The translations under genes and the position numbers were made by a program. Positions 3,063-63,660 of a DNA stretch of 64,000 bases are shown here, one piece after another. Origin of the DNA: a virus; IMG/VR virus record IMGVR_UViG_3300037485_000225, positions 1-64,000 of that record. The stretch is one strand, 5' to 3'. The notes beneath the pieces are model-generated. The model saw nothing but the letters and a program-made list of their open reading frames with translations. It ran no database searches and was not told the DNA's origin. The first letter of the stretch is position 1, and each line of letters opens with the position of its first letter.

Positions 3063-3381
3063 AAAAGCACTTCTTATAGAATATGAGTTGGAGTTTCTAG
3101 AAATGAAACTTCAAGAACTAAAGGAATATATACAGTCTAACCCCTTTTCTTCTTTAGCTGATAGAATGGCTTGGAAGGAAACAAAAGGTGGAGGATCTAT
3201 TCCTATTTGTATTGCTAATAAAGAAGCACAAAGAAAAGACTTGACACAAGCACTTAAAGACTATGCTGAGATTTTACGTACAGTGGATGCTATGAGAGAG
3301 AAAGAAGAGTCTAAAATAGAGGTGAGAGGCAAGGGAGAACTAAGCAGTATGGCTGAAGACTTCCTTAAAAATAGAAAATGA
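3049..3381 (+). CDS. hypothetical protein; by position a candidate small terminase subunit
   Basis: 110-aa charged and coiled ORF immediately upstream of, and overlapping, the large terminase gene. Positional inference only. Confidence 0.35.
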   Translation: MATTKKALLIEYELEFLEMKLQELKEYIQSNPFSSLADRMAWKETKGGGSIPICIANKEAQRKDLTQALKDYAEILRTVDAMREKEESKIEVRGKGELSSMAEDFLKNRK

Positions 3382-45700: not shown

Positions 45701-48700
45701 TGTATATAGAGTGAAGAACATGATTCAAGCTACCAATGGTAGACAAGCTTGGGGTATGCTTCATGATGGTGCTATCTACCTATCTGCAGATAATGAAATA
45801 GGTACAGTGTACCATGAGGTGTTTGAAGCTGTATGGAAAATGTTTACCACTCCACAAGAAAGAGCTAAGGTTGCTAAAGAATTTAGAGCTAGAAAAGGAT
45901 CTTTTATTGAAAGAGAAACTGCTGATGAAGTTAAGTTTGCTGATGCTACAGATGCTCAAATGAAAGAGCAATTAGCTGAAGAGTTTAGAAATATGAGTTT
46001 AACTGGTAAGAATGTGGGTGTTGCTACAGAAGGTATGTCAACTACTCGTAGAATCCTTAATGAAATTTGGGAAGCTATTAAAGCATTCTTCACTGGAGAT
46101 AAAGCTCAAACAAACACAGCCAATCTATTTGATAGAATTGGTAATGGATTTTATAAAGAATATATTCCAGAAGAAGCAGGATTATCTTTTGCTAATAGAG
46201 GATTTATTGATATAGAAGATGCTGTTGGTAATGATGATTCTGAGTTTAGCTTAGCTGTATTTTCAGGTGAGCAGATTCATGATATCATTCAACATATGAC
46301 ATATACATTGGTTAAGGACTTATTTTCTACTAACCAAGGATTGTTTGAAATGCGTGATGAAAAGAAAAAGGATGTCTATGCTAGATTGAAACAAGAGATG
46401 GAACTTTTAATGGCTCAGAATATTGTTTCTATCAGTAAAATAACAAATGAAAAACTTTCAGAAGAAGATAAAGCTGATAAAATTAAAAACTTTAGACAGT
46501 TAAATATTTTGATTAACTTAAACTGGGATTTGTTACAAGAGAAACATGAAGAATATATCAAGTCTTATTCTATACAGTTTGATGAAAACGATGGCTCTAT
46601 TAGAACAGATGAAGATAATGATGGTAAAGGAACTATGTATGGTGATGCTAATAAGATAGATGTATTTAAAAAAGCCAACAGTGCTATTAAAATACTATTA
46701 GCAAGCTTACCTGTAGTGGATGTTAATGGTGATCCTCTACCATCTTCTATAGGTGGATTCTCATTAATACCTATGAGTGAGGTGTTTATTTCTGTAATGA
46801 ATAACACTCACACTGCAAAGAACATTGATGAAATGGTTGCTGATATCCAAGATATGGCTAAGAATGATATCAGATATCAAAAGCTATTCAATCGTATTAC
46901 AAAAGGAAAGAATATAGAAGACTTTGATAATGAAGAAGATATTAAGTTATTAACTGCATTATGGGCTACATTTAAAAAGCAATCTCCTGATGTAAAGAAT
47001 GTATATATATTAGAGAATGGTGATATACAGGTGGGAGATTCTAACTTCTCTACAGCTGCTAGACAAGTGAAACAAGAATTTGTTAATGATATTAAAAAGT
47101 CTATTTCTAATGGCAGTAAATACTTTAGATATTCTGAAAAAGCTGGAGCTTTTGTTGGAGAAATAGATAGTATTAATGATGTTAAACTTAACAGTTTACA
47201 AGCTCAGGTTAATTTCATGAAGGATTTAGGTATTGACTTTGATTATAAGAAGTTAGTTAAGATGCCTGAGAAAGGTATGTTCTCTATAGCTGTTAATGGT
47301 ATTAGAGAAAGTATTTCTAAAGCTAATAAGATTATATCATTCAATGGTCAGGCTCTTTCTATTGATGGTAGATTACGTCAATTATCTGAGATTAAGGCTA
47401 AGATGGATAACCCAGAGTTCAGTAGTACATATTATAATGTAAAGGGTGAGCTTACACAAACATTTATTGGTACCAATGCTGCTAGTGATTTATATAACAC
47501 TCTATCACAAATAAGCAACATTAGTGAACTACAAGGTACTCAGTATGAATACCTTCTCACTGATACATTTGCTAAGAATTCTACTTTATTAGGCTTAATG
47601 TTTGATTTAGTTACAGGAAAGCGTATTGAGGGTTCTAATAATTATATGAAGACTGGTTATGCTGATGGTGTTGTAGACCAAGAAACTGGTAAACAAAAGC
47701 AATCTTCTAAGCTTAATTCTAGAGAAAGAATGATGCAAGAGATTAACTTAAACCTATCAGGATATTATTTAAACCTTATTCCTGGAGATTCATCTATTGA
47801 ATGGATGATGTACATGGGTAATAAGATTAAGCCTGATGATTTATTATTAAACAGACAAGCAATATTTGATGTATTCAAAGGATATTTTATTGATGAATTA
47901 AATCTATCTAGAGAAAATCGTAAAGTGGTTGAAGGTAGAAATTCTAAAGACTTAAGATTCTTTAAAAACATTCTTGGGGAAAAGGTACATAATGATATCA
48001 TCACTGAAAAAGGAACAGCAGAAGAAATATATGGTGATTATGAAAAGAAAATCAACACTGCTTTAAATAAATTCTTTGATACACAAAGAGAGGTGTTAAA
48101 GAACACTCTATCTGATTTCAAATTAATAGAACAATATGAGAACACTTGGGTATCTGAAAGTTTAAATTTTGATAAGAAAGAGTTTACTAATGAGACATTA
48201 GATATACAATTAGATGCTCTTAATGCTAGCTTTGCTATTAACAATATCGAGTTACATAAGTTATTATATTCTGATCCATATCAATATGCAGATGAGTTAA
48301 AGCGTATTAAAAGCTTTAGTTCCCCTAGACAAGCTATTATCAATGGTTCAATAGCTTTAAACAAAGCTTTCCAAAAAGTATGGAACAAAGCATTTAAACC
48401 AGGAGAGATTGGTTATACAAACTTTGAAAGAGACTTCTTTAGATCAACCACACTAACTGAAATTATGGGGATTGATGATGCAGGAATGTATGATGCCTAT
48501 AAAGAAGGTGATGGTGGAGGTATGATTTCTTTAAATGCTTTACGTAATTTTAAAATACGTGCAAGTCAATGGGATAGTGGACAAGAAAGACAATATAAAT
48601 ATGATGTAGCTTGGGAAAAGCAATACAAGTTTTATAAGAAGGTTAAGGGTGTATCTTTAAATGCACAAGATAAAAAGATATTAGCTAAGGGTAATCCAAA

Positions 48701-51700
48701 TATTAAACGCACATACACTCCAATTAAACCAATTGTAGCTGGTGCTAAATTAAGTAACAATACTTGGAATGATATAATATTAGATAAATTCTCTCTTTAT
48801 CCATTGTCTTTCAGGGTGTTACATGAAATTAACACTAACACTAATAAGCCTACATCTAATGCTCTTAAGATGTATGAGAAGATGCAAGCAGAAGATATTG
48901 ATTATGTAGTATTTGAAAGTGCTAGAAAGGTGGGAGCTGAGGAAACACATGATGTATATAATGAAGAAGATGGATCATTTAATGATCGTCCTTTTCAAGG
49001 GGTTATTCAAGTTCCATTTGCTATTATAAGTATACAATCTGAAGTTCCTTCTCATGAAGATGGGTTGGTAACAAGAGGATCTCAAATGACTAAATTAGCT
49101 ACATTAGACTTCATGGAAGCTGGTATACCTGTTGATTTTGTACATAATGATAGTGTAGAATTCACCACTAAGAGATATGAAGCTTGGTATAATTTATCAG
49201 AAGTAGATAGAGAAGCAGCATCTCCTTTATATAAAGAGATTAAGAATAATCAAAATCTATTAGAAGAATTAATGGAGATAGGTATTGAATCTTTAGCTAA
49301 TAGATTTGATATTAAAATAATTAAAAATTTAGATAAGGATGGTAAAGTTATTAGAAGTTTTGAGTTAGGTGACATTAAAAAAGTGGCTACTACATTACAA
49401 AAAGAACTTACAAAGAGAGAAATTAATGTTAATATTAGTGAGGCTTTAAAAGACTATAAGTCTGGAAGTGTTGTAATAGAAGCTACTCCTGCATACAGGC
49501 AGATTAGAAATGTTCTATATTCTATTGCTGACAGAGAAGTGATATCTCCATCAATGCCTGGTGGAATGCTGGTACAAATCACTTCTTCATTATTAGAGTC
49601 TGTAAAAGCTAAGAAAGTAACCATCAATGGTAAGACAGGATATACATCTGATACATTAAGTTTTTATAAGAAAGATGGTAAACAAGTCTGTGGAATCATG
49701 GTGGCTAGATGGTTTGATAGCAAAAAGACTGATAAAGAACTATTAGATGAGTGGTATGATACAGACAAAGATGGTAACAAAACTCTTACAGAAGAGGGTA
49801 GAAAAATTCTATCTGGTGTAGCATTTCGTACTCCAACACAAAAGCAAAACTCAATGGAGAGTTTTGTTATTGAAGGATTTCTTCCTAGGGAGTTTGGTGA
49901 CTCTGTTGTTGTACCTTCAGAATTAGTTGCTAAGGTTGGATCTGACTTTGATATAGATAAATTAAGTATATATTTAAAAAATGTACTTGTAAACAAAGAA
50001 ACTGGTGAAGTTAAACTTATGCCTTACAAAGGAATAGGTAAAGCTGCTAGAGATACATTTAACAATGTAGATGATTATAAAAAGTCTTTGGAGAATGCTT
50101 ATATTGAATCTTTACAGAATTTAATATCTAATCCTCTAAACTATGATAAATTAGTTACAGCTAACTCAGCTAAGCCATTAGAAGATTTAGCTAAAGAAAT
50201 TACAAAGAAAGTAACAGGGGTAGAATTTGACTATAAGTCAGTTGACAATATGTTAAGTAGAACTTATATGTCTGAATTAAGACATGCGTTTGTAAATGGT
50301 AAACAAGCAATTGGTGTTGCTGCAGTGAATAATACAAATCATTCATTAAATCAACGCTCAACTATTTATATTGACTTAAATAAATTAGTCAATATGAGTA
50401 AGCAAGATCAATATTGGTTAGGTGATGGTAAGCTTAAGTTTAAGAAGTATAATACAATTAATCTAAATGGTAGTTCTGTTGCTACATTATCAATGATTAA
50501 AAACAAGGCAGGAGAACTTATTTCAGATACTCTTGGTATGTTCATTGATGGATATGTAGATGTTACTAAAAATGGTCCATGGATTATGCAATTAGGTGCA
50601 ACACCTAGTGTAGCTTCTACATGGATGTTCTTAACAAAGATTGGTGTGCCTATTAGAACCACTGCTTATTTCATGAATCAACCTATTGTTCGTGACTATC
50701 TAAAACAATTAGAAAATCAAGGAACTTCATGGTTATTCAACAATAGTGTTATGTCAGACATGTACATCAAGTATGCAACTAATTCAAAATTAGAAATTGA
50801 AGAATTACCTTCTGAGAAAGAATTAGGTGAGATGGTTGGTAAGACAGACCTAACTGCAGATGAGAAAAAGCAACAACAATTCATATTGGGAGAATTCTTA
50901 AAGTATGCTAAGATGGCTGAGCATATGTTCTTAATGATTCAAGGAACTAACTTTGATACAGCATCTTTCAATGATCCATATTTAATAACTAAAAAGTTAG
51001 TTCAATTAGAAAAGGCTAGAAACACTCTATTCTCTTCTGCAGATGATTTATTAAATAGTTCATTTATTGGTAAGCTTAGCAGAATTATTATTGAATTAAG
51101 AGAAGCCCTATCTAAAATTCTTAAATCTGATGAAGGTAAAATTAGAGAGGTTGTAGAAGATGTTCTATCTAACTATACAGATATGAACGATAGAGACTTT
51201 ACAAGGACTGCTCAAAGAGTTGTATCTACATTATTTGATTGGGCTGTACAAACTGATAAAGGATTAAACGCTCAAATTACAGAAGCTTTATTATCTAAAG
51301 ACAATACAGCTAAAAAGATTACTGATTTCATTGAGCCTATTATAGCTCCTGGAAGCACACATCCTTTAGCTAACAACCACGTAATCAAGATATTAAAACC
51401 TGAATTTGCTGATAAGATTAAAGGAAAACAAGCAAACAACTTAAGTCTTGTTAATAAGGGCAATAAGGTGTATGACCAAAACCAAATCATCTATTCATTT
51501 AAAGAGTTGAAAAACTATTTAAATAGTGTAAACAATCTTGAGTTGTATGATAAGTTAGTCACTCTTGCTGTATTACAATCTGGTCTATCAGAAAACAAGT
51601 TTTCATTTACATCTCTACTTCCTTATGAAGATACTAAGGCTATATATAATAATGTCTTAGCTGATTTACAGGAGATGCCTACATTAAGAAACTTTGCTGA

Positions 51701-52916
51701 CTTAAATGTATTTGAAAGAAACTATTGGAACTATGATGACATTGTTAAGAATAGAAGAGCTAGAGTTTCATTTAATTGGGAAACTAACTCATATGAGTAT
51801 AATAAAAATATGGAATTTAGTGGTGCTGATTATGTATCTCCTATTACAGTTGCAATAAAAGAAAAAGCTATTCCTCAATTAATAAAGCTAAGTACATTAG
51901 CTAGAGAAGCTAATAGTGATGTATTTGTATACACTTGGAAGGAAATCCCTAAAGGAAGAACAGAAGCCCAAATGAAAAAAGAAGGTGATTTTTCTTATAT
52001 TAAGAAGGGATTGTTTAAGAAGGTGTATAAAGATGGTGTTGCTTTAGAAGTTAAAGGTGCAGGCAAAGCTGTTAATTATATATACAAAATGATTAATGCT
52101 TGGGGAGAAGGAATAAAAGCTAATGAGTTTTATACAACAGGACAAAAGTCTGTAATAGATAATGGTTTTGAGAAGACAAATGAAATGGAAGATAAGGTGA
52201 TTACACCATACTTTGATCGACAAATTTCAAAAAAAGTTGTATCTTCACAACCTATGACTGGTATTATGGATTTAACAAGAGATGAACTATTAGAAGACTA
52301 TAGTCAAACTACAGGTCTTCCTGTGGGAACTACTATAAATTTTCAAGAAGAACCTACATCAGGATATAGAAATAGAACAATTAAGAATGCAAGTGCTGAT
52401 GCAACTATTGCATTAGCTCATGATTTTAATTCTGCTGGTGAAAAGTTAACTAAGTCTTCTGTATTAAATCAAAATAAGAAATATATACCTTTAACTATTC
52501 CTAGAAAGACAGAAACTTCTGATATTAATAAAGCTGATATAAGAACTCAAGTTAATATTGTAGTAGACCAATTAAATTCAGTAAATGCTAAAACATTGAA
52601 CATAGCAGGAAATGGTATATATACTATGAGAGATGCTGGATGGAATCAAGAAGAAGTAGATTTGATGACTTATAGAATATTAAAAGGTGTTGTAGAATCT
52701 CCTAATCTTAAGAATAAAATAGTTTCTCTTAGAACTGGTGGACAAACAGGATTTGATGAAGCTGGAGCTAAGGCTGGAATTAAATTAGGAATACCTACTA
52801 CTATACTAGCTCCAAAAGGCTGGACATTTAGAAACATAGCTGGTCAAGATATTTCTAATGAACAACAATTTAAAGCTAGATTTGGTAAATCTGAAGAAGA
52901 TCCTTTTCCATGTTAA
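39753..52916 (+). CDS. giant (4387 aa) multidomain protein with a two-barrel (DPBB) RNA polymerase core; probable virion-packaged, ejected RNAP
   Basis: Uninterrupted 13.2-kb ORF. Near aa 3340-3405, FRTPTQKQNSMESFVIEGFLPREFGDSVVVPSELVAKVGSDFDIDKL lines up with the beta-prime/Rpb1 catalytic barrel [43 protein letters not shown]. Shared residues are R.PT...SM..F, IEG, P..LV.A and D-F-D-x-D. Upstream near aa 2985-3095, IKPIVAGAKL...LYPLSFRVLHEI...VTRGSQMTKLATLDFMEAG resembles the beta-subunit barrel GDKMAGRHGNKG...LNPLGVPSRMNIGQILE...GGQRFGEMEV. The N-terminus has two Gly/Ala-rich hydrophobic segments. The C-terminus has a DprA/SLOG-like motif. Confidence 0.7.
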   Translation: MALPTKETLQNAERVIPDATERTLVEYPSNIPKFQMNLETATGGGNQQSDAYSRALLLASPTKPSNLTSSSTFSYNPLQIDTSGRYDRFILGQDNEDIQGKLQSGWDQAANGLVKGLGIAGTTFLDGTVGLIAGLTSSIANGSLNKFYNNDFTNYMDSLNKSMENKLPNYYTASERDAKWYEAENLFTANFFWDKIIKNLGFSAGAIGAGAVTAGLLSKVPALFGISKAGKLAQVADALEVGLKGVPEIERAAKAADIIAQTSKTINTLNKLSSVDRAVVAGLSAATEGGIEALQGLNSYRDKLIAQYQDTYGEYPPEDVLNKINNRAEDLGNARFGLNVLLLSATNYIQLPRILGSSYRSGKNTLINSAKTNLETGLLESSLPTKGIGKALYKARNVASLFFSPTEGFEEGAQYAIERGTQSYYNKKNYVKDESLGSFINSFSEAAGEGIKAVGDKEGMESILIGALSGGIQQAGFVGMYKNEQGNNRVGIGKGGAIGERGFTGYGGEMAKNTEDLIKQSKRFSLKGDEWLKDTKAGVKRGVVLQEEFDQHVRIGDVLEAKDTEFDYQHNYLLPRIKYGRYDLVKDDIDYYKGLASTQEGFDELKKKGIASELDTQQSFIDRIDNFAEHAKVVNSLNESLNLRYAGVVYKDTNKRAYSDDAIEQMIYAAAKISDYDKRVPQLTDKLVAAGIVVSNVLDDIISEGLPKEEVVKQAINDIDKLDVIEDVKVELKENLRDAVELSIRRKDFIDEYSNIKKNPAKYTEDKGDKPLNTNVQTVKIVTKTGEKDIVVGEELFLGNTVKYTSKGEEVRGFPRLTILGENEDGSIKIKDSNGDIRDISKSELADYKLSKVSDTLTNKTAAYYLAHVNDVFQYNFGQASEDKKRPGRLEYDNGKLFFVYKNYKGEIKRKQIDNSHFIAQEGFRDARIKTVGTLTAESAEKKAAREAFTSAEELKKQQQTLAQNRDNRLEIITELSNEHIAKLEAIEKKLEAKKEQLQKVTEDLEELKTLEKRDLSGNIIVRPFNTVLSKAMRGISTLNNTKDALEKEIAELTADKDELEFNIAYFEDFKQNLDELPENSGQFLEELKFQILIAEELRDKTQDNIKSLGGIIQKIDSAIKDFTQLLKDAFAKFDQDYPSYIKDEFERIINEGSTLSDLPSLKQFIADYVLLNDTKKEISLNKEKVSKLSDEINDLFKDFIEVQKDYDAKKLILDKFQEVADKYRQMKAEEDVLKKDKALQNVIDQSADKGIQTVEHNKPFEAMPKKSNEKIPNSTVAPVQGLSQESELAEHHVRANKFGVNFYDLPGHENFRGVIVTSENESQLGLGGTMVDGEYVGGLMNHLKNAGINPEDVDSKRTIALVMVSVDPNNGEKHLIGVDGQRLESPTVDNAIYQVFPENIDRMFRDDVDDDTKKQIIDDYRKWRNETIANPINDAHEIEASFGVPDYVQRVLENGDSERDYEADGVPVSDSALLTEEDIRTKRVVGIPTTDGAQTRGSVTFNNVKGLPLLFTSNGMVRLRNRQINNEEATLIHKVLVELSDILYDPKYKNWQSPKAQALLNWLKSVSYWGTPKDAEGNRKPAGYNSMFVENMELIMSEDETIRFAFTPSNIRDNKDAIIAEIEKLYGNVNSTMVTGGKSGEWNKPYVQITNIAEDGSIETKTWKNYQSFLLSKVDPDGKPRIAKEIPLTTQIRPVKDANDVNRKGVYFTVTDRNNADTEAVEVSPTAATVTQTTPYGTEAGPTLTTSTESVDKKADIERRRQEELDKYNSGDITVAGVKAINDKYNAELAALESGKTAAPVATQTTPTTSYVFDNKTQNVVTFPNLGPVSFILDLNKYNSSERKEGIAMAVPDTTLENMVVKLVNNSAQSGITQDSPEEQQNALAENVLRALVKKEIDKQLNAQVVAPTVVLPVTVEQERQAAEISVIDSSLQQKINQVAAQGDTAMSSQYRIKLVETFKKFQKEDWSKVETWLKANFPNIPVYRVKNMIQATNGRQAWGMLHDGAIYLSADNEIGTVYHEVFEAVWKMFTTPQERAKVAKEFRARKGSFIERETADEVKFADATDAQMKEQLAEEFRNMSLTGKNVGVATEGMSTTRRILNEIWEAIKAFFTGDKAQTNTANLFDRIGNGFYKEYIPEEAGLSFANRGFIDIEDAVGNDDSEFSLAVFSGEQIHDIIQHMTYTLVKDLFSTNQGLFEMRDEKKKDVYARLKQEMELLMAQNIVSISKITNEKLSEEDKADKIKNFRQLNILINLNWDLLQEKHEEYIKSYSIQFDENDGSIRTDEDNDGKGTMYGDANKIDVFKKANSAIKILLASLPVVDVNGDPLPSSIGGFSLIPMSEVFISVMNNTHTAKNIDEMVADIQDMAKNDIRYQKLFNRITKGKNIEDFDNEEDIKLLTALWATFKKQSPDVKNVYILENGDIQVGDSNFSTAARQVKQEFVNDIKKSISNGSKYFRYSEKAGAFVGEIDSINDVKLNSLQAQVNFMKDLGIDFDYKKLVKMPEKGMFSIAVNGIRESISKANKIISFNGQALSIDGRLRQLSEIKAKMDNPEFSSTYYNVKGELTQTFIGTNAASDLYNTLSQISNISELQGTQYEYLLTDTFAKNSTLLGLMFDLVTGKRIEGSNNYMKTGYADGVVDQETGKQKQSSKLNSRERMMQEINLNLSGYYLNLIPGDSSIEWMMYMGNKIKPDDLLLNRQAIFDVFKGYFIDELNLSRENRKVVEGRNSKDLRFFKNILGEKVHNDIITEKGTAEEIYGDYEKKINTALNKFFDTQREVLKNTLSDFKLIEQYENTWVSESLNFDKKEFTNETLDIQLDALNASFAINNIELHKLLYSDPYQYADELKRIKSFSSPRQAIINGSIALNKAFQKVWNKAFKPGEIGYTNFERDFFRSTTLTEIMGIDDAGMYDAYKEGDGGGMISLNALRNFKIRASQWDSGQERQYKYDVAWEKQYKFYKKVKGVSLNAQDKKILAKGNPNIKRTYTPIKPIVAGAKLSNNTWNDIILDKFSLYPLSFRVLHEINTNTNKPTSNALKMYEKMQAEDIDYVVFESARKVGAEETHDVYNEEDGSFNDRPFQGVIQVPFAIISIQSEVPSHEDGLVTRGSQMTKLATLDFMEAGIPVDFVHNDSVEFTTKRYEAWYNLSEVDREAASPLYKEIKNNQNLLEELMEIGIESLANRFDIKIIKNLDKDGKVIRSFELGDIKKVATTLQKELTKREINVNISEALKDYKSGSVVIEATPAYRQIRNVLYSIADREVISPSMPGGMLVQITSSLLESVKAKKVTINGKTGYTSDTLSFYKKDGKQVCGIMVARWFDSKKTDKELLDEWYDTDKDGNKTLTEEGRKILSGVAFRTPTQKQNSMESFVIEGFLPREFGDSVVVPSELVAKVGSDFDIDKLSIYLKNVLVNKETGEVKLMPYKGIGKAARDTFNNVDDYKKSLENAYIESLQNLISNPLNYDKLVTANSAKPLEDLAKEITKKVTGVEFDYKSVDNMLSRTYMSELRHAFVNGKQAIGVAAVNNTNHSLNQRSTIYIDLNKLVNMSKQDQYWLGDGKLKFKKYNTINLNGSSVATLSMIKNKAGELISDTLGMFIDGYVDVTKNGPWIMQLGATPSVASTWMFLTKIGVPIRTTAYFMNQPIVRDYLKQLENQGTSWLFNNSVMSDMYIKYATNSKLEIEELPSEKELGEMVGKTDLTADEKKQQQFILGEFLKYAKMAEHMFLMIQGTNFDTASFNDPYLITKKLVQLEKARNTLFSSADDLLNSSFIGKLSRIIIELREALSKILKSDEGKIREVVEDVLSNYTDMNDRDFTRTAQRVVSTLFDWAVQTDKGLNAQITEALLSKDNTAKKITDFIEPIIAPGSTHPLANNHVIKILKPEFADKIKGKQANNLSLVNKGNKVYDQNQIIYSFKELKNYLNSVNNLELYDKLVTLAVLQSGLSENKFSFTSLLPYEDTKAIYNNVLADLQEMPTLRNFADLNVFERNYWNYDDIVKNRRARVSFNWETNSYEYNKNMEFSGADYVSPITVAIKEKAIPQLIKLSTLAREANSDVFVYTWKEIPKGRTEAQMKKEGDFSYIKKGLFKKVYKDGVALEVKGAGKAVNYIYKMINAWGEGIKANEFYTTGQKSVIDNGFEKTNEMEDKVITPYFDRQISKKVVSSQPMTGIMDLTRDELLEDYSQTTGLPVGTTINFQEEPTSGYRNRTIKNASADATIALAHDFNSAGEKLTKSSVLNQNKKYIPLTIPRKTETSDINKADIRTQVNIVVDQLNSVNAKTLNIAGNGIYTMRDAGWNQEEVDLMTYRILKGVVESPNLKNKIVSLRTGGQTGFDEAGAKAGIKLGIPTTILAPKGWTFRNIAGQDISNEQQFKARFGKSEEDPFPC

Positions 52917-52930
52917 AATAAAATAATACA

Positions 52931-55900
52931 ATGCTTTGTAACGTAAGAACAAATTCAGTTAATAGTTTAATAAAGAAAGGTGCAATAGATAGTAGTATGA
53001 CTATCATTGATGGTGAGTTATTTAATGAACTTAATCAAACATATTCTGATATTGCTAAAACTAAATATGGTGTAAAGAATGATGGATTGTTATTTAGTAA
53101 ACAATCTAAAGAAGTTCCACGTTTAGGAGCTTCTGTATATTATAGAGAAGATACAAAAAGTGTTCTTAAGGCTGTAGGCAATGATGAGATGTTTGAGGAA
53201 TTACAAAACAATTATAATAGTCAAACAGGACAATCATTTCAATTAGACTCTGTTCCTGCTTCTAAATCTTCTCCTGAACTAATTGCTAAAATAATGGCAG
53301 TTGGTAAACAAATGGGTATTGATTTTCAAGACCTTGCAACATATGCTAAGAAAACAGGACTTGACACTAAAGATATAGCTGGTGTAGCTGATCTTTTTAG
53401 GGGTGTAGTGGCAGTGGCTGAAGGAAGAGAAGACCAAGCATTAACAGAAGAGATAGTTCACATAGCTACAGCTATATTAGAACAGACTAATCCTCAGCTT
53501 ATTACATCGCTTATTTCACAAATAGGTAAGTATAAAATCTACAATGTTACACTTGATGCTTATAAGAATAAAAAAGAATACCAACTATCTAATGGCAAAC
53601 CTGACATTCGTAAAATAAAAAAGGAAGCAGTAGATAAGTTAATTGTTGAAATGATGATTAACCAATCAGAAGGTTCAACAGACTTTCCTGAATTGATGGA
53701 AAAGAAAGACAGAAATGCTGTACAAAGAATGTGGGATGCAGTGTTAGAAGCTATTAGAAGTTTATATAGAAAAAGTAAAATAGATCTGTTTGGTGAGACT
53801 GCTGCTAGAATAGCTGCAGGTGATGTGAAAGGAACAGTGGCAGATATCAAAGAGGGGGGTGTGTTTTTTCAAACTGAACAAATTGAAGCTCTTAATAAAT
53901 ACTATGATCAAATTATAGATAAAGATGGTAGACTTAAAATAGTTCTTGAAACAAAAGATGCTAATGGTAATGTGATTAAAAAGAGACATCGTATGTTTGA
54001 TGGCACTATAGAGGTAGAACAAAGTGTTACTGAAAAAGCCAAAGGACAAAAAAAATATGAGGAAGCTGCTCCAGAGCAACAGATCAAGTATGACCAAATG
54101 AAAGATTGGGGAACTGTTGGTCATGATTTTATGAGAGATGTATTTAATAATGAGTTGATTGATGCTAATGGTTATAAAAAAGCTGAAACTCCTACTAATA
54201 TTAAGACTACATTAAACCCAGATTTACAAAAGAAAATAAGAGATTTTGCAAGAGAGTTGATTAATTCTTACAAACCAGGCACACGATTCATTATAGAAAG
54301 ACAAGTTATAAATGATAAAGTGAAAGGCATGATTGCTTCCACTGTGGATTTTAAAGCTCTTGAGCCTAATACAGATCCTAAAACTATGGATAAAATTCCA
54401 TTTTATATAGACACTCTTGACTGGAAATTTACTTCTCTTAATAAAGAAAATAATGAAGATATCCCTTTCCCTAAACAAAAAGAATGGAAGATTCAAATGG
54501 GAGAGTATGGAAAGATGGATATTGTTTATGGAGCTAAGTATGAACAACTTAGAAAACAAAGAATGATTCAGTTCATTGCTGGATATACCCCTAAAATAAA
54601 AGATGATAAGACTAGTCCATTAGTACTTACAACATTAGAAATTGGTAAGTTAGATAACGTAAAAGAAACTAACCTATACTTATTACCTGTAGCATTAGAT
54701 ACAGAAACTACAGGAAATAAAGAAGTGGACAGCTTAGTTAAATCATTAAGAACATATTACGAAAAATTATATATTGCACCTGTTACTGAAGGAAAGAAGT
54801 GGGTTAAAAAGAAGACAGATTTAAATCAAATCTCTAAAGCTATTCGTCACTTACATATGCAATTAAACTTTGAACCTTTATATAATACATCTAAAACGTT
54901 CTTGAATAATGCAGCGGAGTCATTTAAAAGCTTTGAAAATGTTGATTATAATAAATTAACAAAAGAAGAGATTGAAGATAAGTTGAAAGACTTATTAGAA
55001 TTACAAAGAAGTGCTGAGAAGTTTACTAGATTAGACGAAGTGTTCTTAACTACATTTCCTCCAGGTACCCAACTTAATGAAAAGGATAATGCAACATTAA
55101 AGAACTTAAGACAAGTTGCACGATCTACACAAGAGATGGAGAATAAGATTATTAAGCTATCTCAAAACTATGTTAAGTGGCTCGTTGTTAAAACAGGAGT
55201 TCTTGAAGAAGCTTTTGCAGAAGAAGCAATAAATGCTGAAGTGGAAGTGGATACTATGTCCAAAACCTTTTTAGAGGGTTCTAAACTAGATCCTGTATTA
55301 ACTAGAACAGCAGCTAAATTAGTTCAAGATTCATCTAACTTAGCAGCTATCAAAACTGGAAGGATGATTAATGCTTTTGCTAAGTTATTAGCTCCTTTAC
55401 AAAAACAGGCTGATGCTTTTGGTAAATCTGCTTTTGATATGATTGGTAAAGTGAGTGGTGGAAACTTAGAGCTATTTAAAAAAATTGATAGTCAATTCTT
55501 TAAAGATTTAAAGAAAGCTAAAGAAGATAAGAATAAACAATTCTTACTAGACAATATGAATGTTGCAGAATATAATAAGCTATCTAAACAACAAATTGAT
55601 GATGAGATAGAAGTTATTAATAAAACAACATATTCTACTAATAGCGATGATAACTTTGATATACAACAACGTAGAATCAAAAATGTAAGAAATGAGTTTG
55701 ATATAAATCGTGAAACATTTAATGGTTATAATAGCTATCAGTTTAAAAAACTATATGAAAAAGTTATAAAAGAAGAAGATCATTATTCTGAGGAGTATAA
55801 GGAGATGCAGAAAAATAAACCTGCATTAGATATGTGGGAATTCTTAACTGCTTTGAATCAAGAAGCTATTAATATGGGATATTTAAACAAACAAGGTTTG

Positions 55901-57910
55901 TCTTTCTTCCCATTAATTGAAGCTTCATTGTTCCAAAAGTTCTCTAGAACTAGTGATATTCTAGCAGAAGGTAGAGACTTCTTTAGTGATTTAATAAATG
56001 TTAGAGTGAATGAGAGTCAACAATATTCTAAAACTGATCCTGAAACAGGAGAACGTAAAAGAATCACTCCTACTTATTTCACTACTAATAGAAACATTGA
56101 TGAAGATACAGATAAAGCTGTACATAAACTATCTACAGATTTAAACAAGGTGGGTACAATGTGGATACAGGCTCTAATGAAATATCAACAAATCAAGGGA
56201 GTTGAGAACACATTACTTATATTAGATAAGGTGGAACAAGCTAAAGAAGCGTTATTACTAGATGATAATCAGAGTGTTGTTGTAGAGGGGGGAGTTAATA
56301 TGACCTTTAAGAGTAAAAGAAATGCTGATGCTCTTAGAGTGATTATAGATGACTATCTATATGGACTAGGAGAAGATTTAAATTCTCTTGGTAATCGTAC
56401 ATTAAGTAATGTTACAGGTAAGTTTAAAGAAGGAGAAAAAAGTGAAAACACCCAAATTTCTATTAAGAAAGGATTAAGAAATTCAAACAAACTTATACAA
56501 GCAGGTGCTGTTGGTTTAAAGCCATTGATTGCTATTGCTAACACATTTGGTAACCAGTTCCAAGCATTTATCAATGCTGGTAATAAAATTAAGCGTGGAG
56601 ATGCTACAAAGAATCTTGCTAAGATTGTTTCAGGAGTAGGAGTTACCACAATAGATAAAGGACTATTAGATTTGATTGTTCCATTAAATGAGGATGTAGC
56701 TTTACAAAAAAGAAGAGATATTGCTAAAGGACAGTCTTATATTAAATGGTTAGGTACATGGAGCTTCAGTGATGCAATGATGTCTACTAACTCAATTCCA
56801 GAGAAGAGAATGCAACTAGGAATAGGTTTAGCAATGAATGATAATTCTATGGTTAAGAATGGTAAGATTGTAAACATCAGACAATATGTTAAAGCTGAGG
56901 ATAGAAAAAAGAAATATGCAAAGGGGGTTACAGAAGAAGGAAGAAGAGATATAGAAAAAACGTATGAAGATAGGGTGAAAGCTCTTCAGGAAAGTAGTTC
57001 TCTTCCTAAAATTGCTAAGATTGAAAATGATGAGGTGGTTATACCTGGAGTATCTGATGAAGCATTAGCTGAATATCGTACATCAATTATTGACTATATT
57101 AAGAAGTTAAATGGCCAAATGAGTCAAGATAACAAAGCTGGTTATAGTAGAGACACTATATTTAAATCATTTATGATGTTCAGAACTTGGATACCTAAGT
57201 TAGTGAGCGAGCGTACTATGGATATAAATAAAAGTGTAGAACAAGAAGATTGGGAATATGGTAGAGTGAGAGCATTTTTGAAAACTTGGGCCCATCTAGG
57301 GTTTAAGAATATTTTCAAAATGAGAGAAATCATCAATGGTACAGATAAAGGTCTTGCCATATTAGATGAAATGCTAGAAGCTAAAAAAGCAGAATACCTA
57401 AGAAAGAATGGTAAAGAGTTACATATTACAAAAGAAGAGTTTTATGATTTAATGAGAAAAGAACTTTCTAACGAAATGAAAGAGTTAGGACTTCTTCTTA
57501 GTATGATAGGAATCTTCTTTGCTGCAAAAGCTGCTGCTCCTCCAGAAGATGCTGATGCTCTTACAAAAAATAGATACAAATATTTAGCTAAGGGTATTAA
57601 TAAAATTGTAGATGAGGTGAGCTTCTATTATAACCCATTATCATTTGAAGCTATAAGTAAAGGTAACATTGTACCAGCTCTTTCATTATTGGTAAAAGCT
57701 GAAAAAGTTTTCACTCAACTAAGTAAAGAAGCATATGGTCAATATACAGGAGATCAAAAAATGATAGATGAAGCACATCCTGGTAAATACATATTTGATA
57801 TGCTTCCTCCTTTCTCACAAATTCAAACAGAGATTCTACCATACGTAGATGCTGAATTTGCTAAAGAGTGGGGAATTAGAGTTAGTTCTCAGTCTAGAGT
57901 GTCTAGATAA
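52931..57910 (+). CDS. large virion/ejection protein (1659 aa)
   Basis: Continuous 5-kb ORF; coiled-coil rich. C-terminal hydrophobic segment LGLLLSMIGIFFAAKAAAPP. The true start may be a downstream Met. Confidence 0.5.
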   Translation: MLCNVRTNSVNSLIKKGAIDSSMTIIDGELFNELNQTYSDIAKTKYGVKNDGLLFSKQSKEVPRLGASVYYREDTKSVLKAVGNDEMFEELQNNYNSQTGQSFQLDSVPASKSSPELIAKIMAVGKQMGIDFQDLATYAKKTGLDTKDIAGVADLFRGVVAVAEGREDQALTEEIVHIATAILEQTNPQLITSLISQIGKYKIYNVTLDAYKNKKEYQLSNGKPDIRKIKKEAVDKLIVEMMINQSEGSTDFPELMEKKDRNAVQRMWDAVLEAIRSLYRKSKIDLFGETAARIAAGDVKGTVADIKEGGVFFQTEQIEALNKYYDQIIDKDGRLKIVLETKDANGNVIKKRHRMFDGTIEVEQSVTEKAKGQKKYEEAAPEQQIKYDQMKDWGTVGHDFMRDVFNNELIDANGYKKAETPTNIKTTLNPDLQKKIRDFARELINSYKPGTRFIIERQVINDKVKGMIASTVDFKALEPNTDPKTMDKIPFYIDTLDWKFTSLNKENNEDIPFPKQKEWKIQMGEYGKMDIVYGAKYEQLRKQRMIQFIAGYTPKIKDDKTSPLVLTTLEIGKLDNVKETNLYLLPVALDTETTGNKEVDSLVKSLRTYYEKLYIAPVTEGKKWVKKKTDLNQISKAIRHLHMQLNFEPLYNTSKTFLNNAAESFKSFENVDYNKLTKEEIEDKLKDLLELQRSAEKFTRLDEVFLTTFPPGTQLNEKDNATLKNLRQVARSTQEMENKIIKLSQNYVKWLVVKTGVLEEAFAEEAINAEVEVDTMSKTFLEGSKLDPVLTRTAAKLVQDSSNLAAIKTGRMINAFAKLLAPLQKQADAFGKSAFDMIGKVSGGNLELFKKIDSQFFKDLKKAKEDKNKQFLLDNMNVAEYNKLSKQQIDDEIEVINKTTYSTNSDDNFDIQQRRIKNVRNEFDINRETFNGYNSYQFKKLYEKVIKEEDHYSEEYKEMQKNKPALDMWEFLTALNQEAINMGYLNKQGLSFFPLIEASLFQKFSRTSDILAEGRDFFSDLINVRVNESQQYSKTDPETGERKRITPTYFTTNRNIDEDTDKAVHKLSTDLNKVGTMWIQALMKYQQIKGVENTLLILDKVEQAKEALLLDDNQSVVVEGGVNMTFKSKRNADALRVIIDDYLYGLGEDLNSLGNRTLSNVTGKFKEGEKSENTQISIKKGLRNSNKLIQAGAVGLKPLIAIANTFGNQFQAFINAGNKIKRGDATKNLAKIVSGVGVTTIDKGLLDLIVPLNEDVALQKRRDIAKGQSYIKWLGTWSFSDAMMSTNSIPEKRMQLGIGLAMNDNSMVKNGKIVNIRQYVKAEDRKKKYAKGVTEEGRRDIEKTYEDRVKALQESSSLPKIAKIENDEVVIPGVSDEALAEYRTSIIDYIKKLNGQMSQDNKAGYSRDTIFKSFMMFRTWIPKLVSERTMDINKSVEQEDWEYGRVRAFLKTWAHLGFKNIFKMREIINGTDKGLAILDEMLEAKKAEYLRKNGKELHITKEEFYDLMRKELSNEMKELGLLLSMIGIFFAAKAAAPPEDADALTKNRYKYLAKGINKIVDEVSFYYNPLSFEAISKGNIVPALSLLVKAEKVFTQLSKEAYGQYTGDQKMIDEAHPGKYIFDMLPPFSQIQTEILPYVDAEFAKEWGIRVSSQSRVSR

Positions 57911-58063: not shown

Positions 58064-61000
58064 ATGAATGTCACTTGCTCAGCAACCCCATGTCCAGTTA
58101 TATTAGATTCGACCTGCGTATTTTACGAAGGTTCTTATCTTGTATACACAGGTATTGATACAAATGATAATTTACAAACAGCTTTACAAAAGATTGATGC
58201 TGCATTTGCTGATGTTAGTGGAACATCTGGAACTTCTGGTACTAGTGGTGTGTCTGGATCTTCTGGTACATCTGGAATAAATGGTACATCAGGTGATGAT
58301 GGAACTTCTGGTACTAGTGGTATAAATGGAACAAGTGGAACAAGTGGTTCTAGTGGAGCTAATGGTTCTTCTGGAACTTCAGGAACAAGAGGAACTTCAG
58401 GTACTAGTGGAGCAAATGGTACAAATGGAACTAGTGGAGCAAATGGTACAAACGGAACATCAGGAACAAGTGGAGCAGTAGGAGGAGATGGTACAAGTGG
58501 TACTAGTGGAACAAGAGGTACGTCAGGAACTTCAGGGTCTAGCGGTACAACTGGTACAAGTGGTACAAGGGGAACTAGTGGAACTAGTGGATCAAGTGGA
58601 ACAACAGGTACTAGTGGTACTTCTGCAACAGCAGGTACATCTGGATCTAGTGGTTTACAAGGTGATAGATATGCTACAACTTCTACAACATTATTTACTT
58701 TAGGTAATGCTGGTACAATCACAGTGGGTACTACATTAGCTTACACACCAGGTCAAACTGTTGTAATAGCTTATGATGCTACAAACTATCAAGAAAGTAC
58801 TGTAATTGCATATAATAGCGGAACAGGATCTTTACAATTTAGTGCACCTATCAACACAGTTGGTAGTGGAGCATATGCTGATTGGAGTGTTAACTTGGCA
58901 GGAGCAAGTGGAGGAGATGGTACATCTGGTACTTCTGGTTCAACAGGAACTAGTGGTACATCAGGATCTACTGGAACTTCAGGAACAACTGGTACAAGTG
59001 GTTCTTCTGGAACCTCTGCAACTAGTGGTTCATCAGGAACTAGTGGTAGCACAGGAACTTCAGGTTCTTCTGGTACTGACGGTTCTTCTGGAACTACTGG
59101 TACATCTGGCACATCAGGAACAACTGGTGTAGATGGTACATCAGGAACAACTGGTACATCTGGCACTTCTGGAACAACAGGAACTAGTGGAACTAGTGCT
59201 AATGATGGTACAAGTGGTACTTCAGGAATAGACGGTACTTCAGGTACATCTGGAACAGACGGAACTAGTGGTACAACAGGAACTTCTGGTACATCTGGTA
59301 CTGATGGAACTAGTGGTACAACAGGAACTTCTGGTTCTTCTGGCTCTAGTGCAACCTCTGGAACATCTGGTACAACTGGAACTAGTGGTACAAGTGGATC
59401 TAGTGGTAGTAGTGCAACAAGTGGTACTACAGGTACAAGTGGTACATCAGGTATTGATGGAACTAATGGTACAAGTGGAACTTCAGGTACATCTGCTACA
59501 TCAGGCACAAGTGGTTCTGATGGAACAAGTGGGACCTCTGGTACTAGTGGTATAGATGGAACTTCTGGCACAAGTGGAATAGATGGAACTTCTGGCACTG
59601 ATGGTACTTCAGGTACTGATGGAACTTCTGGAAGTGATGGTACATCAGGTACAAGTGGTACAAGCGGTACAAGTGGTACAAGCGGTACAAGTGCAACTGA
59701 TGGTACAAGTGGTACAAGTGGTACTGACGGTACAAGTGGAACAAGTGGTACTGACGGAACATCTGGAACTAGTGGAATAGATGGTACAAGTGGAACTAGT
59801 GCAATAGATGGTACATCTGGTACTGCTGGAACTTCAGGTACAACAGGTACTTCTGGAACTAGTGGAACCAATGGTACTGATGGAACGTCAGGTACTGATG
59901 GTAGCAGTGGAACAGCTGGTACAAGTGGTACTTCTGGAACTAGTGGTACAACTGGTACAAGTGGTACAAGTGCAACTGATGGAACGTCAGGTACAAGCGG
60001 TACAACTGGAACTAGTGGTACTTCAGGAACAACTGGAACTAGCGGAACGTCTGGTACAACAGGTACAAGCGGAACATCTGGAACAGATGGTACTTCAGGT
60101 ACTGCAGGTACTTCAGGTATTCAAGGAGACATATATGCTTCTTCTTCTACTGATAGTTTAACAATAGGATTAGGTGTACAAAATTTAACAATAGGAACAG
60201 GCTTAGCTTATACAGTTGGTCAAACTGCATTAGTTGCATATGACGCAAGTAATAGCATGGTAGGTACTGTTCTTTCATATAATAGCGGAACTGGTGCTTT
60301 CTCAATAGATGTATATGACTTCTTAGGAGGTGGTACATATTCTACATGGGCAGTTAACTTAGCTGGTGCATCTGGTGGTGATGGTAGCTCAGGATCTAGT
60401 GGTACAAGTGGAATAGATGGAACATCTGGTACAAGTGGTACTAGTGGTACTTCAGGAACAACTGGTACTAGTGGTACAAGTGGAACCACTGGAACAAGTG
60501 GTACTTCTGGAACTTCAGGTACAAGTGGAACAAGTGCTACAGATGGTACTAGTGGTACAAGTGGTACAACAGGCACAAGTGGAACATCAGGCACTACAGG
60601 AACAAGTGGTACTAGTGGTACAAGTGGTACATCTGGTACATCTGGTACAAGTGGTACAGACGGAACTTCTGGTACAAGTGGTACAGACGGAACTTCTGGT
60701 ACAACTGGAACCTCAGGAACCAGTGGATCTACAGGTACTAGTGGTACAAGTGGTACTTCAGGTACAACGGGAACTTCTGGAACTTCTGGAACAAGTGGTA
60801 TTAATGGTGTGTCAACTAATTTATTTTTATACGAAGCTGATGCAAACACTTTTTCGGGCGCACCTTCAAGTGGACATATTCTTTGGAATAATGCCACACA
60901 AATAAGTGCTACCCAAATAAATATAAATCACTTAACAGATACCCCGATAACAGATATTGATATATTTTTATCTTTATTACAAACAGGACAAAAGTTAACA

Positions 61001-61921
61001 ATACAAGACAGAAGTAATTCAGCTAATTACCAAATATGGACAATTAGCGCTACTCCTACTTATGTCCCTACAACTTATTGGACTATACCTGTTACATTGG
61101 TATCTTCAGCAGGAACGGGAACAACAGGGTTTGCTAATAACCATCCAATATTTGTAGCTACATCTGCTTTTAGTGGAACGAGTGGAACAACGGGTACTTC
61201 TGGTACAAGTGGCACTGGAACTAGTGGTACATCTGGTACAACTGGAACTTCTGGAACTACAGGTACAAGTGGTACATCAGGTACTTCAGCTACAGATGGA
61301 ACTAGTGGTACAACTGGTACTAGCGGTACATCAGGCACTAGTGGTACAAGTGGAACATCAGCAACTGATGGAACAAGTGGTACTTCTGGCACCACAGGAA
61401 CTTCTGGAACAAGTGGAACATCTGGTTCAAGTGGTACAGCAGGTACAACAGGTACTTCAGGTACAAGTGGAACTGATGGCACAAGTGGAACAGCTGGTAC
61501 ATCTGGAACCTCAGGATCTAGTGGTACAACTGGAACAAGTGGAACAGCTGGAACAGCTGGTACAGCAGGTACAAGTGGTACATCTTGTGGATTATGTGGA
61601 ACAAGTGGAAATACAATTACTATTCCTTCTACTCCTGCTACAACTACTACAACTACAACAGCTGGTCCTGTGGTATATACAATTGATTCATTTGGAACAG
61701 GTAGTGCCTTTGATGCTTGTACTACTGGAAGTCCAACAATCACTGTATATGCATTACCAGGTTATACAACACCTATTGTTGGCATGATTCTTTATGATAG
61801 TTCAAGTTTAACAACTCCTTATATTGGTGGAGCAGGTTGGAGAAAATTAATACAAGGTGCTACAAGTTATGCAGCAGAAGTAGATATTAATGGAGAAATT
61901 ACAAACTATTCAGCTTGTTAA
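58064..61921 (+). CDS. collagen-like tail fibre (1285 aa) with two interruption domains, a second globular domain and a Cys-containing C-terminal domain
   Basis: N-terminus (C..C...C.FYEG...YTG.D.ND.LQ.ALQKID.A) is homologous to the N-termini of 15586 and 16770. Long G-T-S/G-x-y runs. Interruption domains at 58661-58920 and 60125-60384. Non-collagen segment 60800-61190. C-terminal SCGLCG...poly-T...Cys domain. Confidence 0.8.
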
Positions 61922-61947: not shown

Positions 61948-63660
61948 ATGCCTTACGCTAATATTACCATAACTACCAATACAGATTTATCGTTTATAAC
62001 TGGACAATTTATCCAGCTTATAGCAGATAGTGATAACTATATTTTTGGTCAAATAGTTTCATACAATCCTGGTACTGGTTCATTAACTTTTACACCAACT
62101 AAAGAAGTTGGTAGTGGTAGTTACAGTACTTGGAACATAGTTGCCTCTGGTTCAGCTGGTGATGATGGTACAAGTGGTACTGCAGGAACATCTGGTACAA
62201 CAGGTACAAGTGGAACTACAGGTACCTCTGGAACAAGTGCTACTTCTGGTACTACTGGTACAAGCGGTACATCTGCTACAAGTGGAACAAGTGGATCTAC
62301 AGGAACATCTGGTTCTAGTGGTACATCAGGTACAGACGGTACATCAGGTACAACTGGTACTTCAGGAACTACTGGAACTTCTGGTTCTAGTGGAACTACT
62401 GGTACATCAGGTACATCAGGTAGTGATGGTACTAGTGGAACTTCAGGTACCTCAGGTACTAGTGGAACTACTGGTACAAGTGGTAGCTCAGGTAACTCAG
62501 GTGATAAGTATGCTACTACATCAACAACATCTTTTACTTTAGGTAATGCAGGAACATTAACAGTAGATACACTACTTGCTTATACACCAGCTCAATCTAT
62601 TATTGTTGTATATGATGCAAGTAATTATCAAGAGTGTGAGGTTATAAGTTATAACCCAGGAACAGGTGCTTTACAATTTGCTGCCCCTACTAGAACAATA
62701 GGTAGTGGTACATATATAAGCTGGGCAGTAAACTTGGATGGTGCTTCAGGAGGTGATGGTTCTTCAGGATCATCTGGTACTTCTGGATCATCTGCAACAA
62801 GTGGTACCTCTGGTACAAGTGGTGCTGATGGATCTAACGGTACATCAGGCACTTCTGGAACTACAGGTACTAGTGGAACTACTGGTACAAGTGGAACAGA
62901 TGGTACATCAGGTACTTCTGGTACAAGTGGAACAAGTGCTACAAGTGGAACTTCAGGTACCACTGGAACATCTGGAACTAGTGGAACATCTGCAACTAGT
63001 GGAACATCAGGTACAACTGGTACATCTGGTACAAGTGCTATTGATGGCACAAATGGTACCTCTGGAACTAGTGGAACCTCTGGTACAACTGGTACATCAG
63101 GTAGTTCTGGAACTAGTGGTACAAGTGCAACTTCTGGAACTTCTGGAACAACTGGCACAAGTGGTACAAGTGGTATTGATGGTACAAGTGGATCAAATGG
63201 TACATCTGGTAGTAGTGGATTAGGTTCAGAAACTATTCAAGCTTGTAGTACAGCAGGTACAGCAGGTACATTTGGTACATCAGGTACATCAGGTATAGCT
63301 ATTGATCTTATTAATGAAGCACAATATGTTGGTGCAGTTTATAACTATAATATAAATGATGGAACAAATTTCCAAACAGGAATTCTTGTAGTTGCTTGGA
63401 ATAACATATCAAATGAAGTGGTTATAACACAAGCTGCCCAAGCTACAATTGGAACAGTGACTGCATATTTCTTTGCAAAGCTTACAGGCGGTAATGTAGT
63501 ATTATCTCTTATAACAAACAATACTACAACTTTATGGAATGTTGTATTAACTAAGACAACCCTTCTTGATTGTGGTGGTTATATTCCTGAATCATTTATA
63601 GTGACAGAAGATAACAACTTTATAATAACTGAAAATGATAACTTTATCATAACTGAATAA
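61948..63660 (+). CDS. collagen-like fibre (570 aa) that begins with an interruption-type domain and ends in a globular C-terminal domain
   Basis: The N-terminal 75 aa (..LAY-like ...YNPGTGSLTF...GSGSYSTWNIVASGSAGDDG) is homologous to the internal interruption domain, which recurs at 62502-62760. G-T-S repeats. C-terminal domain ends in ITEDNNFIITENDNFIITE. Confidence 0.75.
   Translation: MPYANITITTNTDLSFITGQFIQLIADSDNYIFGQIVSYNPGTGSLTFTPTKEVGSGSYSTWNIVASGSAGDDGTSGTAGTSGTTGTSGTTGTSGTSATSGTTGTSGTSATSGTSGSTGTSGSSGTSGTDGTSGTTGTSGTTGTSGSSGTTGTSGTSGSDGTSGTSGTSGTSGTTGTSGSSGNSGDKYATTSTTSFTLGNAGTLTVDTLLAYTPAQSIIVVYDASNYQECEVISYNPGTGALQFAAPTRTIGSGTYISWAVNLDGASGGDGSSGSSGTSGSSATSGTSGTSGADGSNGTSGTSGTTGTSGTTGTSGTDGTSGTSGTSGTSATSGTSGTTGTSGTSGTSATSGTSGTTGTSGTSAIDGTNGTSGTSGTSGTTGTSGSSGTSGTSATSGTSGTTGTSGTSGIDGTSGSNGTSGSSGLGSETIQACSTAGTAGTFGTSGTSGIAIDLINEAQYVGAVYNYNINDGTNFQTGILVVAWNNISNEVVITQAAQATIGTVTAYFFAKLTGGNVVLSLITNNTTTLWNVVLTKTTLLDCGGYIPESFIVTEDNNFIITENDNFIITE

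Follow-up and report, generated by a model that had tools for sequence, protein, structure and literature searches.

Globular interruptions are already known from collagen-like phage fibres. Phage fibre repeat 2 (Pf2) is found in EPclB, the product of an Escherichia coli prophage, and in lambda Stf. EPclB is a collagen-like phage fibre that is interrupted by this repeat (PMC3368898), and in the Tal extensions of Streptococcus thermophilus phages collagen-like linkers alternate with "3-beta domains" of ~60 amino acids (aa) and with BppA-like carbohydrate-binding modules (CBMs) (PMC7533335, PMC9437275). A further point of comparison is domain VI of the JBD30 baseplate hub gp53 (PDB 8rk3), which its authors describe as stabilising and non-catalytic (PMC11445458). 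Here we describe a non-collagenous module that occurs five times in three collagen-like open reading frames (ORFs) of the window, by which we mean the whole stretch of 64,000 nucleotides that was analysed (positions 1 to 64,000 of IMG/VR virus record IMGVR_UViG_3300037485_000225). An earlier note on this DNA had seen no obvious counterpart of the module among characterised collagen-like proteins such as BclA or Scl. Because EPclB and Tal already show globular interruptions in collagen-like fibres, the module is a further case of a known architecture (PMC3368898, PMC9437275, PMC7533335). What is new to the catalogues is the module domain itself.

Long Gly-X-Y tracts were found in three plus-strand ORFs of the window, namely ORF A (16770-19466, 898 aa, one module), ORF B (58064-61921, 1285 aa, two modules) and ORF C (61948-63660, 570 aa), the last with an N-terminal variant of the module, one internal module and a C-terminal domain of 122 aa. 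The flanks of the modules belong to the collagen triple-helix repeat family (Pfam PF01391), with 227, 334 and 114 bits for ORFs A, B and C against a cut-off of 27.2 bits (Pfam Collagen E 1.1e-68 for ORF A and 5.6e-102 for ORF B), and through these collagen parts all three proteins also match PHROG tail-fibre and collagen-like tail families. Copy 1 of the module lies at 17799-18056 (core 17799-18035; ORF A aa 344-429, core 344-422; domain E 3.8e-38). Copy 2, the one flagged at the outset, lies at 58664-58921 (core 58664-58900; ORF B aa 201-286, core 201-279; domain E 4.7e-40), and copy 3 follows in the same protein at 60128-60385 (core 60128-60364; aa 689-774, core 689-767; domain E 2.2e-37). 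Copy 4, the N-terminal variant, occupies 61948-62169 (core 61948-62148; ORF C aa 1-74, core 1-67; domain E 2.8e-31), and copy 5 occupies 62503-62760 (core 62503-62739; ORF C aa 186-271, core 186-264; domain E 5.5e-43). All five are on the plus strand and in frame, which confirms the earlier observation, although the positions first given for copies 1 and 5 were one base out of frame (17800 rather than 17799, and 62502 rather than 62503), a trivial difference. A profile built from the five copies and run over the six-frame translation of the whole window found only these five places, with everything else at E > 1.

When the breaks in Gly periodicity were mapped, each of the four internal copies had a non-collagen core of exactly 79 aa followed by G-A-S-G-G-D-G, which restarts Gly-X-Y. 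These copies start with G-D-[RKI]-Y and end with W-x-[VI]-N-L-x-G-A-S-G-G-D-G. Copy 4 instead starts at an initiator Met (M-P-Y-A-N-I-T; 'MPYANITIT...') and begins at profile position 17-18, without the first strand and loop (positions 1-16). It adjoins collagen directly and on its C-terminal side only, and its end reads ...NIVASGSAGDDG. Thus the claim that every copy is flanked by collagen and ends in NL.GASGGDG holds for the four internal copies but not for copy 4. All five share the family motif S7 ... Y50-N-x-G-T-G55 ... G66-S-G-T69 ... W73 over about 79 residues, and their pairwise identity ranges from 32 to 70%, the highest value being that of copy 5 with copy 2. At the DNA level synonymous sites are saturated, with a synonymous divergence (dS) of about 1-2 and a ratio of non-synonymous to synonymous divergence (dN/dS) of 0.25-0.69. 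The copies are therefore old paralogues under purifying selection rather than recent repeats, and the same saturation rules out a recent duplication or an assembly artefact as their source.

The module is confidently predicted to be an autonomously folding small beta-barrel of ~80 residues, with six to seven strands and an SH3/KOW-like core. AlphaFold2, run on a 37-sequence alignment, gave a monomer model of copy 2 that is all-beta with seven strands (predicted local distance difference test, pLDDT, 89.2; predicted template modelling score, pTM, 0.77). The model of copy 4 is similar minus the first short strand (pLDDT 78.3). The idea of a discrete globular module within the collagen-like stalks was thus borne out. 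A well-annotated Pfam family would, as the earlier note allowed, have reduced the novelty of the domain, and none was found: scans of Pfam, NCBIfam and PHROGs with the five copies, with the three ORFs and with 20 diverse homologues brought nothing above threshold for the module. The SH3-, KOW- and Tudor-like Pfam models all stayed below their cut-offs (SH3_2 13.6-19.3 bits, cut-off 21.8; Tudor_KDM3B 13.7-17.3, cut-off 27; LSM12 15.6-15.9, cut-off 29.5). A repeated, weak but consistent match to phrog_31840, a family of unknown function (E 0.003-0.1), hints at copies of the module among its members. Two module profiles, the narrow A1 from the five-copy family alignment and the broad A5 from 79 sequences, were searched against PDB sequences; the best hit was the Spt5 KOW domain at E 0.13, with none below E 0.1, and Foldseek against the PDB gave no match at E <= 1e-3.

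How the module compares with the described systems can be stated for each of them. Like EPclB, the fibres of the window have collagen-like tracts broken by a conserved non-collagenous module, as in a trimeric phage side-fibre, with other domains capping the ends and with modular mosaic evolution. In contrast, the interrupting domain is unrelated, since at E <= 1 Pfam Phage_fiber_2 (Pf2) matches neither any of the five copies nor any of the three full-length proteins. Furthermore, EPcl collagen is Pro-rich and has one interruption, whereas the window has (G-T-S)n tracts free of Pro and no more than two modules in any protein, a number that rises to as many as six in relatives. The Tal extensions share the plan of beads on a collagen string in a phage adhesion device, with a variable number of globular inserts. 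They differ in fold, the inserts of Tal being half-FN3-like three-strand domains and large CBMs and the module a six- or seven-strand barrel without fold similarity to Tuc2009 BppA (5E7T) or half-FN3; Tal also belongs to phages of Gram-positive hosts and has a gp27-like N-terminus. Fold-level similarity was found to small six-stranded accessory beta-barrels of phage tail proteins, of the type of JBD30 gp53 domain VI, but homology by sequence or profile match was not found. Such barrels, including that of the GP4 tail fibre (8jov) and the neck barrels of Klebsiella, Acinetobacter and Pseudomonas phage depolymerases or tailspikes (8bke, 9k4a, 7vul, 4y9v, 4ru5), all sit in trimeric tail proteins; they have no detectable sequence kinship to the module and none is set in collagen. 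Finally, BclA with its C1q/TNF-like C-terminal domain and Scl1/2 with their helical V domain also bear non-collagenous domains, on bacterial collagen-like stalks, that aid trimer formation. These domains are terminal rather than internal and occur once per protein, and their folds differ from that of the module, the one being a C-terminal jelly roll of ~130 aa and the other an N-terminal alpha-helical bundle; the module model is all-beta with no helix. The absence of kinship to BclA or Scl that had been noted from the start was upheld, with no sequence or fold match to either.

The collagen tracts of the window (16959-19109, 58220-61609 and 62149-63294) consist almost entirely of (G-T-S)n and have next to no proline or charged pairs, and for this reason mis-registration of the chains is a real risk. 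The (G-T-S)n composition is itself unusual for a stable triple helix. The tracts contain 29 isolated substitutions at Gly positions (27 Ala and 2 Ser, e.g. GTSATSG) that keep the triplet phase, and a fully helical ORF B would reach a length of roughly 240 nm. To place the module relative to collagen more broadly, the flanks of 440 instances in 178 proteins were surveyed. Gly-X-Y flanks were present on both sides of 232 instances, on one side of 93 and on neither side of 115, and some proteins (e.g. P0037, P0040, P0148) carry tandem module arrays without any collagen. Since 115 of the 440 are unflanked, the module is an independent domain, joined to collagen in many cases though not in all. Triple helices of 3-8 triplets are unstable alone in collagen peptides. 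Among 280 distinct inter-module linkers, 116 have 24 residues or fewer, and 80 of these retain 3-8 Gly-X-Y triplets (e.g. GDRGATG, GERGAVGATG). That periodicity is kept in such short linkers implies that the modules on either side are brought together in trimers.

Trimeric apposition of this kind would also be expected of an obligate intertwined knot, which the earlier note had raised: a strand-swapped single trimeric domain that nucleates the triple helix, like foldon or the PfC domain. The module is, moreover, always in register with the collagen restarts in the window. A single chain, however, is predicted with high confidence to form a compact barrel, as is the N-terminal variant, and the fold neighbours are per-chain barrels. 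The quarter of instances that are collagen-free, with tandem arrays lacking any trimeric element, likewise argue against a knot, which we consider highly unlikely.

Conservation was compared between collagen-flanked and non-flanked copies across 432 distinct instances. Residues S7, Y50, T54-G55, L57, G66-S-G-T69 and W73 are equally conserved in both groups, and L25-A-Y27, Q31 and N76-L77 are more conserved in the collagen-flanked copies. Trimer or junction contacts might account for the second group, although this excess is only suggestive, given that the flanked copies are also closer kin of one another. At the exit, profile positions 79, 82 and 85 are occupied by Gly in 99-100% of the collagen-flanked copies. 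The remainder of each fibre was compared over 165 distinct module-bearing IMG/VR ORFs, chosen by module similarity. The module was matched in 149-158 of them; the median identity was 59-63% when copies 2 and 5 were the reference and about 43% when copies 1 and 3 were. The C-terminal domains of ORFs B and C were matched in none. Intermediate counts were obtained for the 122-aa mid domain of ORF B (4 ORFs), the S74-like end of ORF A (22) and the two N-terminal anchor domains (20-31). As judged from these comparisons, the module behaves as a conserved chassis with interchangeable ends and not as a variable tip.

Our preferred reading, which is tentative and falls just short of probable, is that the module is mainly structural and that it would act as a three-lobed bead that punctuates a proline-free triple helix and holds its register. 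In the three collagen-like fibre proteins, which would be trimeric, the module is set between Gly-X-Y tracts. At the conserved entry G-D-[RK]-Y-x-T-[TS]-S each chain of the trimer would leave the axis, form its own barrel and rejoin through the conserved exit W-x-V-N-L-x-G-A-S-G-G-D-G, such that every module position becomes a three-lobed bead on the fibre. As folded and mutually apposed nodes, the beads could nucleate and clamp the repetitive (G-T-S)n helix and keep it in register, and a bead might also serve as a joint; host recognition would be left to the variable C-terminal domains. Several points weigh against this structural reading. The trimeric arrangement, the geometry of the bead, the module-module contacts and the role in register and stability are ones that we infer, and a true collagen helix in the (G-T-S)n tracts is itself a prediction. 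In addition, the general or ancestral role of the module cannot be collagen registration, given the 115 of 440 unflanked instances and the long collagen-free arrays. The equally conserved Y50, T54-G55, G66-S-G-T69 and W73 fit determinants of the fold but would also fit a ligand site built from aromatic residues. Lastly, the pattern of a conserved module with variable tips is partly built into the sampling, because the loci were selected through the module.

A profile search of the kind that the earlier note had recommended was run over 1.84 billion representative proteins. At E <= 1e-3 it matched 6,316 of them; thresholds of E <= 1e-10 and E <= 1e-30 left 1,842 and 62, and one protein can contain as many as 12 copies. 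In IMG/VR, at least 249 loci contain close relatives of the module, the best 80 at 56-72% identity. Copy number does vary between related phages, another of the suggested checks: 76 collagen-like ORFs in these loci have one copy, 17 have two, 10 have three, one has four, six have five and one has six. BFVD has the same domain in 24 viral UniProt entries, named 'Collagen triple helix repeat', 'Tail fiber protein', 'Glycine-rich domain-containing protein' or 'Uncharacterized', with one nameless. Among GenBank phages, tblastn with the module found only one uncultured phage of 735 kb, in two records (LR756501, LR756503), and tblastn with a distant homologue found gp035 of cyanophage CL131, which is annotated as hypothetical and is not discussed in the CL131 paper. 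The closest copies among species-representative genomes (contigs L081-L089) are in a metagenome-assembled genome (MAG) of Sediminibacterium (contig JBBAJX010000014.1, L081; 78% identity) and in several Bacteroidia MAGs, which points to a Bacteroidota host range for the lineage of the window phage. One closest-copy contig, of 3.2 kb, belongs to a Woesearchaeota MAG and may be a mis-binned viral fragment. More distant members include alphaproteobacterial-type tail proteins and secreted proteins with PKD and FN3 domains. Together the results establish a large, real, widespread and uncurated family that is present in phage tail fibres and in some bacterial surface proteins.

This distribution bears on the possibility that the barrels decorate the fibre in threes and bind carbohydrates or surfaces weakly, which would raise avidity towards the host envelope ahead of binding by the tip; the earlier note had likewise thought of a stalk-decorating, lectin-like module. 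Ig-like, BACON and CBM domains decorate other phage proteins in a comparable way. The collagen-free arrays of beads on a string resemble adhesin repeats, secreted proteins of Bacteroidota type that have PKD and FN3 domains contain the module as well (P0035), and Tyr50 and Trp73 are conserved in every context. Additionally, several fold neighbours of the module belong to depolymerase or tailspike proteins, and the analogous Tal of Streptococcus thermophilus phages bears CBMs between its collagen linkers (PMC7533335, PMC9437275). The matched tailspike barrels, however, are accessory or neck domains and not known sugar sites. A host-specific binder would not usually be conserved from Bacteroidota phages to alphaproteobacterial-type tail proteins and a cyanophage, as the module is, and it is the fibre tips that vary while the module does not. 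A weakly adhesive function is possible but rather unlikely.

The N-terminal variant offers a different view of how such fibres may be put together. Its M-P-Y-[SA]-N-I-T start recurs in 21 IMG/VR ORFs, and an independent IMG/VR search seeded on the variant gave 38 loci. A gene with internal modules lies upstream of the N-terminal-variant gene in 27 of these, and the gene orders seen include I-N, I-NI-N-N-N and III-N-N-N (I, internal module; N, N-terminal variant). In the other 11 loci no other module gene precedes that of the variant, although 5 kb or more of sequence lie before it. Many secondary fibres that start with the variant have C-termini of the S74-chaperone type. The reading that fits best is that the variant serves a family of secondary fibres as N-terminal cap or attachment end, and within the structural reading of the module the strand-1-less form would play the same part in secondary fibre paralogues. 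In a set of related loci (L106, L108-L112, L113-L116, L119, L130, L131), three to four short fibre paralogues of ~330-650 aa stand behind one long fibre gene. Each of these paralogues begins with the variant, and the C-termini that were read in the same contigs (L015, L046) have the S74-like chaperone end. The array looks like a cassette of interchangeable secondary fibres.

It could further be proposed that the internal modules of a primary fibre receive the strand-1-less modules of the secondary fibres encoded downstream, which would give branched fibres. The recurrence of the variant with its conserved start, the 27 loci with an upstream partner and the order of ORF B before ORF C in the window are in keeping with such docking. 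Against it, the variant is predicted to be a complete barrel alone, and most internal-module fibres have no N-terminal-variant neighbour. Because 11 of the 38 loci lack a partner and the counts of the two module types are unequal (I-NI-N-N-N has 2 internal modules and 4 N-terminal ones), one-to-one docking is not supported as a rule, and it was rejected as such. As a branch point the module is thus improbable. We give equally little credence to a bolder version, in which the module is a dedicated "collagen node" whose beads set the register segment by segment in very long fibres and whose N-terminal form plugs the secondary onto the primary fibre, which would yield the branched fibre sets of Bacteroidota phages.

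The fibre genes lie among phage structural genes that fill this region of the window, including those for the large terminase (3378-5414), the portal (5414-7993), the major head protein (9941-11494) and several virion structural proteins, and a tail-fibre-like gene at 15586-16749. A near-identical GenBank phage was not found when 25 kb of the window were compared by megablast with 50,697 GenBank phages. The tail-fibre-like ORF and the collagen ORFs A and B have in common an N-terminal domain of ~50-60 aa that contains Cys (15586-15760, 16770-16958 and 58064-58219; motif C..C...Y.G......G...D.L..AL.KID), which is absent from ORF C and is probably a common virion-attachment end. The last ~100 aa of ORF A (19110-19466) resemble the intramolecular chaperone of endosialidase-type fibres (Peptidase_S74 type). 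The match to Peptidase_S74 is 18.2 bits, under the 22-bit cut-off, and phrog_33119 matches at E 2.3e-5; this end suggests that fibre A may mature by autoproteolysis. ORF B is composed of the Cys-containing domain, (G-T-S)n tracts, the two modules, a second non-collagen insertion of 122 aa that is unrelated to the module (60809-61174), a poly-Thr linker and a Cys-rich C-terminal part (61610-61921) whose last residue is Cys. Similar poly-Thr and Cys-rich ends are present in upstream fibre genes of related IMG/VR loci. The C-terminal domain of ORF C (63295-63660) has no relative among the 165 compared module-bearing IMG/VR ORFs.

Directly after ORF A, an ORF of 626 aa (19466-21346) contains poly-Thr linkers and repeated S-x-D-x-G-x-[TS]-[WF] motifs of the BNR or Asp-box type, which suggest a beta-propeller. 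It has no PHROG match, and a distant homologue (P0078, 2879 aa) has the barrel module together with many repeats of similar type. Very large ORFs lie upstream of the fibre genes ORF B and ORF C at 39753-52916 (4387 aa) and 52931-57910 (1659 aa), the latter without a match in the PHROG scan, and another at 25522-30558 (1678 aa) matches PHROG virion structural proteins. Further ORFs overlap the collagen tracts. Antisense ones, on the minus strand, were seen at 16868-17728, 17909-19060, 58135-58722, 58789-59871, 60220-60897, 61075-61743 and 62649-63158, and off-frame ones, on the plus strand, at 17326-17577, 18277-19170, 58806-59132, 59268-59555, 59808-60161, 60417-60905, 61173-61787, 62141-62542 and 62738-63223. 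These overlapping ORFs encode 83-383 aa, the antisense ones rich in P-L-V-P-E-V and the off-frame ones in Q/V/L/E. They arise from the GGT-ACT-TCT-type repeat as by-products, and to call them genes would be a mistake.

The general view of phage-fibre function is unchanged by the module. For several thousand public fibre and surface proteins the present label says no more than 'collagen triple helix repeat', 'tail fiber protein' or 'hypothetical', and a named model for the module would allow better annotation of uncultured phages, mainly freshwater and Bacteroidota-associated ones. If it is true that the beads clamp the register in proline-free collagen, the module may be of use in the design of recombinant collagen-like materials, and it would help to explain how phages assemble very long, low-complexity trimeric fibres.

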